A stretch of DNA of 64,000 nucleotides from Callorhinchus milii (taxonomy: Eukaryota), in NCBI RefSeq assembly GCF_018977255.1, contig NW_024704742.1, forward strand, positions 20,834,001-20,898,000, read 5' to 3'. Positions 13,264 through 25,797 of this stretch are shown here, piece after piece. The notes beneath the pieces were generated by a model. It was not told where the DNA came from, did not search any database, and was given only the letters and a program-made list of their open reading frames with translations. The position numbers and the translations under genes were made by a program. Position 1 is the stretch's first letter, and each line of letters begins with the position of its first letter.

Positions 13264-13911
13264 TAGTTCAATGCAATGGTGACCTTGGTTTAACTGCTAA
13301 TTATAACAACATTTATAGGCAACTTCTTGTTGCCTTTTCTCTATTGGTTTGTTAAATGATATTTACCCAGGGTTGCAAAGAAGTACTTCGGAAAACTGCA
13401 ACTTATCCTGCACACTCTAATTGGGCCTATTTATCAGCAGATTTCTTTGCAGATTGTCATAATGAGTGACAGGAGGCACATTCACCCCATTATTATTATG
13501 ATTATTATTATTATATAATCAGAGGGCAGTCAGAGCACAAACTATTGCATCATGTGCCTAGTCAGGAGGAAAATACTTTGGAAATGTGTTCGCACTACTG
13601 CCAGGCGTGGTCTGACCAGAGCATTGCACAGCTTCAGGTTGAATTATGGGGATCTAAACTCAACTGTACTGAGAATGTAGTGCATCTATTCATTACTGTC
13701 TCACAATGTGTTGAGTTTATCCTGATCCATGCCCGAGCACTGTGGTGCAGAGCGTGCCCATTTATGGTCTTTTAGGGGCTAAATTTGTGACATTTCATAA
13801 CAAATTGAAATTGAAATTGATAGTTATTAGATCAAATCTACTATGAAAAATGACAAACTTACCCTTCTATTAACTATTCCTGTGATGTATCACCACAAAT
13901 CAGACTGTAAT

Positions 13912-14086
13912 AATAATCACTGCATTTGATACAGTGCTTTATCACGTCTTCAAGACGTCTCAAAGCACTTCACAGAACATAATGTAAAGTGAATTGACTG
14001 TATATTTTTGTGGGCGAAACGCGGCAGCCAATTACACACAGCAGTGTCCCACAATCAATCATGGATTGAGTGACCACATTATTATT
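13912..14086 (-). mobile_element. Young tRNA-SINE 3' half
   Basis: Reverse complement of SINE core and tail. Confidence 0.85.
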
Positions 14087-14353
14087 AATAGATTGCAATA
14101 TTTAGATTATTTCCATCATTGTTTAACAACCTTGCATGGATGGAAGTTTGCAAATCCAGGTCATTAATGTGTATAAGGAACAAAATAGGATCCGGTCTCA
14201 GGTACCAGTCAATACCTCTCCCCTATTTTAACCTAAACCCCTTACCAAGAATCCTTGTTTCCTTCCCTTTAACCAGCTACAAAGCCACTAACATCTCTTA
14301 TCTCCGATACCCAGGTTCATGAGTTTCTGAATCAGATCATATTCTGTTACTGC

Positions 14354-15287
14354 CTGGACCCCTATTTTGTTATTCAGTAGGCCTTTGGGGACTTATTTGT
14401 AACCAAATAAATGTGTCTAAAACAGGCACCAAAGTGCATTGTCTAACTTTTCCAGGCTTCGCAATCCACCATTCACAGAACCACTAACTGAAAGGGGAGA
14501 AAATATCCGTAAAAAATAAGATTAAAACCTTTATTTTAAAAAATAACTAAAACTCTTATCAGAAGAATAGTAATTGTAATTCAGATTGCAAAAGCCAGCA
14601 GTTTCTGAGGATCATTATTGCATCCATTTTGTGTGTTGATTTAACCACATTGCTGGCGTCAGACACTGCTGGAGAGATGGGTATTAAAGAATGAGCTATT
14701 GGGCACAAATCATACCTAATGCTCAGCATATGACAGAATTATTAAATCCGCACTGCACCACTCTGCAGTCTCATAGATCAGATCTGGCTGAAAAGCTGCT
14801 AGGATGACGTTGTGGCCTCTTTTGAAACAGAGATTAAATATTCCAAGGACGAGAGGAAAATGATACGAAAAACCCCTTGTCTGATCTTAGATGATATCAG
14901 TCTTACGGTTCCTCAAGTCATTATCAGATCCTTCAAGTTTCCACAACCTCTACGTATCACCGTATTGAGACGCTATCAGGAAAGCATGTGGGGGGGTTGG
15001 TTATCAAAGATCTGGCTGTAAGTTTTTCAATCTCCAATTGTTATTGATGTGTAACATCGACTTTGTCGACTATCTCGGTCTCTCTCTCGAGTTAACCTTG
15101 TACATTCCATGCTTCTGATATTCCATGCTTACGGATATTTTCTCCCCTTTCAGTTAGTGGTTCTGTGAATGGTGGATTGCGAAGCCCGGAAAAGTTAGAC
15201 AATGCACTTTGGTGCCTGTTTTAGACACATTTATTTGGTTACAAATAAGTCCCCAAAGGCCTACTGAATAACAAAATAGGGGTCCAG
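14354..15287. repeat. 159-bp inverted repeat (arms 14354-14512 and 15129-15287, 616-bp spacer)
   Basis: Arms are reverse complements with one mismatch by eye (TCCAGGCTTC vs GAAGCCCGGA). Confidence 0.95.
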
Positions 15288-15399
15288 AATATACAGTCAA
15301 TTCACTTTACAGTGTGTTCTGTGAAGCGCTTTGGGACGTCCTCCCGACGTGAAAAGCGCTATATCAAATGCAAGGATTATTATTATTATTATTATTATT
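15288..15399 (+). mobile_element. 5'-truncated young SINE (3' 112 bp with long ATT tail)
   Basis: AATATACAGTCAATTCACTTTACAG...GCGCTATATCAAATGCAAGG(ATT)8; abuts the right arm of the inverted repeat. Confidence 0.9.
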
Positions 15400-15534
15400 C
15401 TGGCTGAACAGGAACCCATAACCCTAGTTAATGTCATTTTGACCAACATGCTAAGGGATGCTGCTTGACCAGTGAGTGAGCGGTTGCTTCCACAGAGAAA
15501 TCAATAGATTCCTAGCAGAACCATGGAGAGGGAA

Positions 15535-15965
15535 CCAATTAGATTCACGAGGATGATTCCAGGAATGAGGGGCTTGATTTATTGAGGAGAGACTACAGAA
15601 ACTGGGTCTGTTGTCACAGAATAGGGAAGGATGAGAAGAGATCTATGCAAGTGTTCAAAATGCTAGCAGAGAGGGAGGGAGGTGGGAGGGGTGGGGAGGT
15701 CAGCTGAGGTTAATAAGGTCAAAAAATGGAAGCTATTTGCACTTGTTGGTAGGTTGGTAACTGGTCAGTAACTTAGAATTAAGAATATGATATTTGCTGA
15801 TACTAAGGGAGAGGTTAGGAGAATTTATTTTGCACACCTTATTAGCACATGGAAAACGTCACACCCAAACGATGGCTGATGAGGAATATTTTAAAAGGTA
15901 ATTGGACAAACATTTTAAAATTGAATATAAGGGTATGGAGGGGAAAGGGGAAGGAAGTGGGACTA
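15535..15965 (+). mobile_element. Degenerate CR1 LINE 3' fragment
   Basis: AGATTCACGAGGATGATTCCAGGAATGAGGGGCTTG...GAGGAGAGACT (RFTRMIPGMRGL..EERL), homologous to 25184-25797. Confidence 0.7.
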
Positions 15966-17075
15966 AATAATAATATAACATTTCATACAGGGCATATATT
16001 TCTAAATTGTAATGCCTGTATTTTGCGGGTGAAAGAGCAATACCTCTTTAAAAGAGTCAACACAGGTTGATTTTAATTCTCAGAGCTGTGAATGTAGCAA
16101 TATTGAGACTAATGTTCAAACTCAGATTGCTTACTTAAAAGTACAGCACTTCAGTTAAAGATGGCACAGTACTGCCAAATGCAAACTCTAGCAAAAAACT
16201 GGACTCAAAACTTTCATCCCGATCTCTTTCCTTTAGTTTTATACAAAATGACATAATAAATATGACAAGATTATAATATTCCTCTTGAGGTGCTTTGTAG
16301 TTATTTTACAGTGACTCTTCTGTCAAGTAGCTTTTCTTATGTTTTGGAAAAATCCACCGACACTTGAATTGTTTGCAGGATTGGACAAAAGTGTTTTAAA
16401 TTCCATGTTTTTTTCTACGAAGATCCATTGATGTCGACAAATCTAACTGAACATGTATTTCAGTCAGAAGCAGCTCGGGGATAGCAGACGTCAATCTCTT
16501 GACAGTATGTCTTTAATGATTTTTTTAAAAAAATCATAGCTATCTAAGGGAAAACCTATATTTTAAAACTTACAACTTGCATTTATATAGTGCCCTTCAC
16601 GCTGGATGGCGACTCGGAGCTCTAAGTCTTCACGTGGAGATGAAATACTGAAATTACTTTCAGGAACAAAATATTATAAGCATTGCATTGTCCTGTGAGT
16701 TCAAAGTCTTTGATTTGCTGCCTTATTCTGCTCTGCAAGGCTTCAGATCGAAGCTACTTTATCCAGGTTTTGGATGAGGAAGGAACAAAATACAGGAGGC
16801 TACTATTGCCAATGGACTGCAAAATGCTCTCAGCAATTGCTTAGCTGCAAGACATAATGCTTTTATTACGGTAGCAAAATAACTGATTGTGCTGCAGTAG
16901 AACAAATGTTTCCGCACATAAAAAGAATTAAATCGTTAAAACATGGGATTTATTGACAAGCGGGACATTTATAACAGCTGATACTTTCAACTGAGCCATT
17001 GAATTGCACAGGATCGAAGTTGGGTTTGTGAAGTGTAAATAAAAAGGTTGGTTAATTTGGCCGGCAGTGACTCAC

Positions 17076-25183: not shown

Positions 25184-25797
25184 TAAGAACATAAGAAATA
25201 GGAGCAGGAGTAGGCCATTCGGCCCCTCGAGCCTGCCCCGCCATTTAATAAGAGCATGGCTGATCTACTAACCTAATTCCATTTACCCGCCCTCTCCCCA
25301 TAAAAACTAAAAGATTTCCCTTAAATCTTTTAGTTTTTAAAAATCTATCCATCTCAGTCTTGAGTATGTTCAATGACTGAGCATCCGCAGGTTTCTGGGG
25401 TAGAGCATTCCATAAATTCACTACCCTCTGAGTGAAGAAATATTTTCTCAACTCAGTTCTGAAGGGCTGACCCTTAATCTTGAGACTATGACCCCTAGTT
25501 TTAAATTCTCCAACCAGAGAAAACAGTCTCACACTATCAACCCTATCAAGATTCTAAGAATCTTACAGGTTTCTATAAGATCACCTCTAATTCTTCTATA
25601 TTCTAGAGAATATAGGCCTAGTCTACTCAAACTCTCCTCGTAGGTCAATCCCCTCATCCCAGGAACCAAACTAGTGAACCTAAGTTGCACCCCCTCTAAG
25701 GTGTGTTTGTCCTTTCTTAGAAAAGGAGACCCAAACTGCACACAATATTCCAGGTGCGGTCTCACCGAAGCCCTATACAATTGCAGCAAGACTTCCC
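25184..25797 (-). mobile_element. CR1-clade LINE 3' end (HER1-like)
   Basis: VLLQLYRASVRPHLEYCVQFGSPFLRKDKHTLEGVQLRFTSLVPGMRGLTYEESLSRLGLYSLEYRRIRGDLIE, then TRGHSLK...FFTQRVVNLWNALP; CR1 3' UTR and (TTCTTATG)n tail; L2 tail follows at about 25800-25975 (+). Confidence 0.93.

Follow-up and report, generated by a model that had tools for sequence, protein, structure and literature searches.

A 5'-truncated SINE joined to an inverted copy of neighbouring intron within the NAF1 gene of Callorhinchus milii

In the present study, we examined a 64,000-nt stretch of Callorhinchus milii DNA (the window; contig NW_024704742.1, positions 20,834,001 to 20,898,000, forward strand), where an inverted 159-nt copy of nearby host intron directly adjoins a 5'-truncated SINE inside the last coding intron of NAF1. 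We regard as the likeliest origin of this structure a single retrotransposition event, during which additional sequence was copied from a template at the 5' junction. As to how the extra sequence was made, our tentative first choice, which we put a little below an even chance, is one recent germline retrotransposition in which the cDNA switched to a local minus-sense strand. The first-pass annotation of this DNA had already proposed a chimeric insertion bounded by a target-site duplication (TSD). The structure, the gapless join to inverted nearby intron and the local template were upheld in our analysis, and the TSD had to be given up. The features to which the text refers are listed below.

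14339 to 14346, plus strand: ATATTCTG, a possible microhomology of 5-8 nt, usable only given a 10-nt skip between two CTG triplets
14354 to 14512, plus strand: left arm, source sequence in its original intronic context; one of two genome copies, with read contigs continuous into the left flank
14513 to 15117, plus strand: spacer, single-copy host intron forming the hairpin loop; genome self-matches only, and within an unbroken 676-nt contig in 3/3 runs
14783 to 14792, plus strand: TCTGGCTGAA, candidate left TSD of the first-pass annotation, judged to be no TSD
15113 to 15117 (left) and 15398 to 15402 (right), plus strand: TTCTG, candidate short TSD, whose right copy overlaps the last TT of the tail
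15118 to 15130, plus strand: 13-nt junction filler, which repeats 15102-15114 in direct orientation (12/13) and holds the second ATTCCATGCTT; its last TT is common to the arm
15129 to 15287, plus strand: right arm, derived inverted copy of 14354-14512 in NAF1-transcript sense, with its outer edge at the SINE 5' break to the base
15288 to 15399, plus strand: 5'-truncated SINE, ~104 nt from the 3' end of a tRNA-Ala-headed element of ~325 nt, antisense to NAF1 and including the (ATT)8 tail at 15376-15399

The two arms of the inverted repeat (14354-14512 and 15129-15287) lie 616 nt apart and are complementary at 158/159 positions (99%), which agrees with the one-mismatch reverse complement reported at first pass. 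When the whole window was scanned, 13 other inverted pairs of at least 45 nt were found with a complementarity of just 71-92%, and those of them which were placed by coordinates proved to be SINE-SINE pairs. The agreement between the arms cannot be the result of chance. At all four arm ends the homology breaks off sharply, with no run-on into either flank. The single mismatch is at 14454, a CpG site, where the left arm has A and the reverse complement of the right arm has G. Contigs of the public read runs X2 and X3 carry G at this position, and the arm contig of run X1 equals the right arm with 0 differences; the A of the window is probably a later CpG transition. Since the only difference lies at one CpG and the contigs of the three runs read in this way, the arms were probably identical at birth. 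The right arm is the derived copy, probably made along with the SINE insertion, because its outer edge meets the broken 5' end of the SINE exactly and the left arm lies in unremarkable intron.

Counting the arm genome-wide had been suggested as a test of local templating. The arm has exactly two matches in the 991-Mb genome, both at the NAF1 locus, as a local template predicts, and with just these two copies available the template must have been local. The halves of the spacer and its last 110 nt match only themselves in the genome and are thus single copy. In addition, contigs from four public runs were compared with the window. Runs X1, X2 and X3, all from one study, differ from the window at 14139 and 14333 and hence represent other haplotypes. 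In 3/3 of these runs an unbroken 676-nt contig (14483-15158) extends 30 nt into each arm with the full spacer between, so that both inner junctions exist in each of them. Run X1 also gave a separate 159-nt arm contig with a depth of 20.5 against 8.7-12.2, about twice single-copy, and a 57-nt contig (15258-15314) which bridges the arm to the SINE; among the contigs listed for X1-X3, this outer junction is contained in one of X1 only. In X2 and X3 the arm was merged with the left flank in one contig, where depth neither shows nor excludes two copies. Run X5 covers only 14688-14920, with no junction inside. To the right of 15400, every run had almost no read cover, and with this cover the X1-X3 contigs contained no allele separating the arm from the SINE and no empty allele. 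Overall, the structure is neither a misassembly nor a private event and is carried by several individuals.

Spurious inverted duplications can occur in long-read assemblies, and a second, minus-strand SINE copy (13908-14006) sits 348 nt left of the left arm. An origin as an assembly artefact, as the TIRs of a DNA transposon or as an inverted duplication which included that SINE was nevertheless found to be extremely unlikely. Misassembly was ruled out by the junctions in the contigs of three other runs, of one study, with their own differences from the window. A TIR or MITE was ruled out as well, since both copies of the arm are here and the spacer is single copy; furthermore, the outer flanks of the 934-nt unit differ, which leaves it with no TSD. 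As for a duplication including the neighbouring SINE, that copy is only 87% like 15288-15385, against 99% for the arms, and this candidate was also ruled out.

The SINE piece (15288-15399) corresponds to positions 221-324 of the 325-nt full-length copy L018, with 100% identity over 104 nt. The gapless join of the arm to a 5'-truncated SINE, which was noticed at first pass, is confirmed. In two alignments, the piece was compared with 12 copies from the window (13 sequences) and with 30 copies from the genome. Full-length copies of the family measure ~325 nt, and ARAGORN identified their head as tRNA-Ala (tgc) at L018:1241-1311; this head is absent from the window copy, whose start is position 221. 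The 98-nt SINE piece 15288-15385 has 35 matches inside the window, itself included, and a diagnostic SINE 30-mer with three CpGs has 34,516 matches at no more than 1 mismatch in the 991-Mb genome. Judging from the 100% identity to a full-length copy, the long perfect tail and the number of matches of the CpG-rich 30-mer, the insertion is young and belongs to a very abundant, active family with its CpGs still intact. The tRNA head of the family and the identity in the 3' region and tail are those of an (ATT)n-tailed tRNA-derived SINE mobilised by target-primed reverse transcription. The tRNA-Ala head, the length of ~325 nt, the very high copy number and the cartilaginous-fish host resemble the CmiSINEs (SINE2-1_CM) of holocephalans, to which the accessible part of the published account assigns a tRNA-Ala head, a CORE body and a tail common to the L2-2 LINE (PMC5499810). 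Membership of the CmiSINE family is offered as a lead, which fits that account in outline in a comparison by description only. The assignment of the partner LINE to L2 is taken from the available text of PMC5499810 and from the first-pass annotation.

The junction between arm and SINE (15287|15288) is blunt; the family reads CCCACAAATAT there, and its consensus has a base before the break which the arm does not share. In human DNA, localized inverted duplications also occur without any retroelement, as the accessible part of PMC5829575 describes, and such a duplication, made by replication template switching or repair, could have been followed or preceded by a separately inserted adjoining SINE. 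Two unrelated events of this kind are, in our judgement, very unlikely, as the edge of the repeat coincides with the truncated 5' end of the SINE to the base and both parts show about zero divergence. At the other junction, the 11-bp duplication noticed at first pass was found again, with ATTCCATGCTT at 15104-15114 and 15120-15130. The source of the filler lies 16 nt away and that of the arm 616 nt away, and the product consists of three templated pieces in a row, namely the SINE, the arm and the filler.

The left boundary proposed at first pass was the TSD TCTGGCTGAA at 14783, or TCTGGCTG at 15011, by which the insertion would comprise 14793-15398 or 15019-15398. The words themselves are present as described, the 10-mer at 14783-14792 and 15399-15408 and the 8-mer also at 15011-15018, so that upstream TCTGGCTG words stand in the spacer at 14783 and 15011. 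An exact 10-mer after the tail which is repeated 616 nt upstream, with its 8-mer present twice, is in favour of this proposal, the base-composition expectation per kb being 0.0007 for the 10-mer and 0.007 for the 8-mer. A TSD at either place would count 336 or 110 nt of single-copy sequence as insert. Neither 14793-15128 nor 15019-15128 has a second copy in the assembly, and the event is so young that the source of captured sequence should be ~100% identical. The contigs are continuous over 14792|14793 and 15018|15019 in 3/3 runs; the duplicated arm interrupts contigs at its edges, and these breaks serve as a built-in positive control for duplicated sequence. Being single copy and within an unbroken contig in 3/3 runs, 14793-15128 and 15019-15128 are host intron rather than inserted material.

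The behaviour of the family is also against a 10-bp TSD. We compared the 5' and 3' flanks of 69 other young copies whose tail could be recognised. The longest exact match measured 8 nt, and flank repeats of at least 6 nt were found in 17/69 copies against 173/1977 mismatched control pairs. By eye, the repeats which abut both ends measure 5-8 nt, and a clear one is absent from most of the 69 copies. The post-tail 10-mer was found again within ~1.2 kb upstream in three of the 69 control copies, and in none of them was it a TSD: the places were the body of the SINE, a microsatellite and, for L046, an old repeat. L046, a truncated copy whose post-tail 10-mer is repeated perfectly 61 nt upstream, was considered as a second case and rejected; other genomic copies of the old repeat align straight through the 10-mer and the 61 nt, which are therefore host sequence. 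The recurrence of TCTGGCTGAA is thus a real coincidence by composition, yet its empirical background is a few percent. With the interior single copy, the contigs unbroken and the flank repeats of the family no longer than 8 nt, we consider the words as a left TSD very unlikely. The shorter candidate, TTCTG, suits in its length the 5-8-nt flank repeats of the family; a 5-mer of this kind is expected by chance about once per kb, which makes it weak. Overall, no clear TSD bounds the insert.

The spacer has no similarity to other sequence of the window. It contains a 72-codon open frame (14803-15021), for which no family was matched in Pfam. The TCTGGCTG word occurs 5 times in the window against 2.3 expected, with three occurrences within 625 nt on one strand, and for this clustering we have no explanation. 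Around the three words, no extended similarity was found past 13-14 nt, which is at chance level in the 2-kb self-comparison (E = 4.6).

NAF1 is an essential gene which encodes an assembly factor of H/ACA RNPs. In the window it lies on the minus strand, and the Gar1/Naf1 domain exon is located at 42644-42480; the closest relatives are the NAF1 proteins of rays and sharks. Using three such proteins in tblastn, exons were placed at 60810-60715, 45056-44967, 42644-42480, 23991-23929, 17166-17074 and 10079-9708, each of them on the minus strand. The insertion falls within the last coding intron, between the exons 17166-17074 and 10079-9708. With respect to NAF1, the SINE runs antisense, and the right arm has the polarity of the transcript. 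An ancient LINE reverse-transcriptase fragment is located in the right flank. An old repeat spanning the insertion site, which could fix the pre-insertion sequence, was not found, the LINE homology of the right flank being confined to 15520-15665 and the spacer being without matches. A search of 13500-16000 with Rfam gave no family reaching the gathering score.

When the minus-strand RNA was folded, the arms formed one continuous stem, with -458.8 kcal/mol against -232 for shuffled sequences (z = -37.8). The near-perfect 159-bp dsRNA stem expected at first pass in the last NAF1 intron is supported by this fold prediction together with the exon placement. The primary transcript of NAF1 is thus predicted to contain a long hairpin, with the spacer as its loop.

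For the origin of the inverted copy, we lean slightly towards switching of the cDNA strand over snap-back of the upstream target end. In the preferred account, the NAF1 intron would be nicked near 15400 on its minus strand by a LINE-encoded enzyme, which would prime at the (ATT)n end of a young tRNA-Ala SINE RNA and copy only the last ~104 nt of this RNA. The minus-strand cDNA would then leave the SINE RNA and continue on a nearby single strand of minus polarity (NAF1 sense) which spans 14354-14512. After this, the cDNA would anneal through AA:TT to the plus strand of the upstream target end, copy 13 nt (15102-15114, with one error) and finally be joined at ~15117, leaving the 616-nt spacer as untouched host intron. 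The order of these steps, the strand which grew and the nature of the template are our inference.

This route has the advantage that the direct orientation of the filler requires no extra assumption, since one nascent minus strand would be extended throughout on templates which are naturally single-stranded. The copied arm is in NAF1-transcript sense and the site is within transcribed NAF1. In addition, the junction of arm and SINE (15285-15292) has its reverse complement in ATATTCTG at 14339-14346, which could provide the cDNA end with a possible 5-8 nt microhomology. This word had been proposed as such at first pass; the complementarity is present, and it would be usable only if the 10-nt skip is assumed. 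Against cDNA switching, the join of arm and SINE is blunt in its present form, and the authors of the human L1 study, in the accessible part of their preprint, ascribe such templated genomic pieces to processing of the reciprocal end and not to extension of the cDNA (PMC11702581). Further points against this account are the missing clear TSD, the survey of 70 other young copies with no second case and the unexplained cluster of TCTGGCTG words.

The single strand on which the cDNA would have continued may be RNA or DNA. The earlier proposal that the copy is in the sense of the NAF1 transcript was correct, as NAF1 is on the minus strand and 15129-15287 is the minus strand of 14354-14512; because of this sense, either the pre-mRNA or the minus-strand DNA could be the template. 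Nascent NAF1 pre-mRNA would be the simplest candidate and the non-template DNA strand the alternative. The sequence cannot tell them apart, because unspliced intron RNA and DNA read alike. That the reverse transcriptase which moves this SINE switched midway onto nascent NAF1 pre-mRNA, and wrote 159 nt of the intron back in antisense, is a possible reading, if less likely than not.

The same single event could also have received its extra DNA from the other end, and this we regard as quite possible, if somewhat less so than strand switching of the cDNA. Here, following a staggered break, the upstream (reciprocal) target end would be resected, and its plus-strand 3' tail would snap back, anneal through TT:AA at 14511-14512, copy its own strand to 14354, be released and be joined blunt to the truncated SINE cDNA through end joining. 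Resection from 5' to 3' bares exactly the strand which is required, the polarity yields the inverted copy that is observed, and the inner junction shows a 2-nt microhomology. Moreover, in the available text of PMC11702581, the nearby-templated, inverted and inverted-duplication cases of human L1 are ascribed to reciprocal-end processing, including self-annealing. Against snap-back, the filler (15118-15130) requires a minus-strand template, and this same strand would then have to be resected over ~770 nt. A 2-nt anchor at a distance of 616 nt is also unspecific, and the freed tail must join the cDNA without microhomology.

The survey took in a further 70 copies from the young subfamily of the window copy (30 + 40); 22 of them begin past position 30, and segmental duplicates account for at least 5 pairs. 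For the 200 nt which precede the 5' end, a near-identical inverted copy in the neighbourhood was found in 0/70 copies, and the window copy itself, which served as positive control, was detected. With no second case among the 70, there is no series on which strand rules can be tested. The ~34,500 young copies of the family would permit such a test, which could distinguish the capture of RNA from the snap-back of DNA.

The locus is a natural example, carried by several individuals, of a retrotransposition which duplicated and inverted unique host sequence and thereby built a 159-bp hairpin in a transcript. Comparable events have been documented so far mainly for human L1 in cultured cells. That such an event took place in a cartilaginous fish, and with an (ATT)n-tailed SINE, suggests a side reaction general to target-primed reverse transcription. 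If the reading with nascent RNA as template were true, LINE enzymes other than that of L1 could capture local nascent transcripts in the germline, and insertion into transcribed genes would give rise to new long hairpins built from unique host sequence. Such hairpins would be potential substrates of ADAR or Dicer, and the present locus offers a defined substrate for asking whether they are edited or diced. As a single event of a known class, the case is of modest interest alone.

The closest relatives were found in a human L1 study (Mendez-Dorantes et al. preprint, PMC11702581), the accessible part of which reports 99 L1 and 235 pseudogene insertions. Beside these, 3 insertions contained genomic DNA templated near the site, and in 3 the genomic DNA was inverted at the reciprocal end; target sites also showed local deletions, inversions and inverted duplications, and the roles of ORF2p and of host polymerases were left open in the available text. 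Like those rare events, the NAF1 insertion is a typically 5'-truncated product of target-primed reverse transcription with a piece of nearby DNA, sometimes inverted, at its 5' junction; here, the source of this piece lies 616 nt off and has two genome copies, and the filler was taken from 16 nt off. The L1 events, according to the same text, were somatic, took place in cultured human cells and involved L1 ORF2p and poly(A) tails. Unlike them, the present event is germline, is found in several cartilaginous-fish individuals, was made by the enzyme which moves an (ATT)n-tailed SINE and has a 13-nt second filler in addition.

Two further systems, as far as the accessible parts of the sources describe them, are more distant relatives than the events of PMC11702581. 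In L1 twin priming or 5' inversion (cited in PMC11702581), an inverted segment likewise stands 5' of a truncated element after a single insertion, although the inverted part there is retroelement sequence from the same RNA and here it is host intron. In the U6-L1 chimeric retrocopies (Buzdin et al. 2002, cited in PMC5499810), a 5'-truncated 3' part is likewise preceded by a 5' part of RNA sense, and in our case the 5' part also matches a cellular RNA, the NAF1 pre-mRNA, collinearly and in the same sense. The partners in chimeras of that type are abundant small or processed RNAs from elsewhere, and the TSD is clear, whereas the NAF1 insertion has an unspliced intron partner 616 nt away and no clear TSD. 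As regards the predicted hairpin, inverted Alu pairs in introns and UTRs, which the available text of PMC11702581 mentions as ADAR substrates, likewise form an intramolecular duplex in a Pol II transcript; unlike them, the stem in NAF1 would be a near-perfect one of 159 bp and of unique sequence. In listings of open-access papers on retrotransposition with template switching and inverted duplication, and on chimeras of SINEs with nascent or intronic RNA, none was found which describes a SINE fused to its host intron in inverted copy. Equivalent events have already been reported in human L1 experiments, and the NAF1 case is a new natural example of this known class.

In the present study, the new SINE (15288-15399), a 5'-truncated copy joined to the right arm of the inverted repeat, was compared with 70 other genomic copies of the same young subfamily, with positions counted on a full-length copy of about 325 nt (L018). 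A shared start at positions 209-211 was seen in six of the 70 copies (L035, L036, L046, L059, L066 and L069), among which L035 and L036 duplicate each other, and this suggests either that truncation favours one point or that these copies represent a distinct short element. A head-to-tail partial dimer was also found at L008/L009 and L012/L013 (at roughly 28-31 kb and 54-58 kb on G000:C1), in which a full-length SINE and its tail are directly followed by a 5'-truncated copy starting from position 185; the dimer is seen twice because the surrounding region is itself duplicated. In three young copies (L028, L030 and L069), the sequence after the tail reads ...CTGTGAAGCGC..., the 3' part of an older SINE, which suggests that older members of the family have received insertions repeatedly at a single point. 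CTGG likewise follows the tail of the new SINE in the window.

Two further repeats were located around the inverted arms:

13908-14230, minus strand: older SINE copy of the same family, to the left of the left arm at a distance of 120-450 nt
15520-15665, plus strand: ancient LINE reverse-transcriptase fragment, a short way to the right of the SINE insertion

The older SINE lies in the orientation opposite to the new one and its 3' part is 87% identical to it, and together with 15288-15385 it makes up a second, weaker inverted pair (pairs I2 and I3). The LINE fragment carries an RFTRMIPGM-like motif, as translated by eye, and shows 72-83% similarity to many copies across the genome; within the window it also matches 25562-25709.

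When contigs from three other samples (public read runs) were compared with the window, differences were found at three positions:

14139: G in the window, C in all three samples
14333: C in the window, T in all three samples
14454: A in the window, G in two of the three samples

These differences probably reflect allelic variation in the assembled individual.

The spacer between the arms and the end of the SINE tail contained the following features:

14783, 15011 and 15399, plus strand: three TCTGGCTG words, all inside 625 nt
14803-15021, plus strand: 72-codon open frame, occupying the interval between the words at 14783 and 15011

The DNA of the open frame is single copy in the genome, and a Pfam search of the frame gave no match. 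On the minus (NAF1-sense) strand, every one of the three words reads as pyrimidine-AG and then CCAGA, which, judged from sequence, resembles a splice acceptor. In the plus-strand reading, GTAAGT comes after the word at 15011 and has the look of a splice donor.
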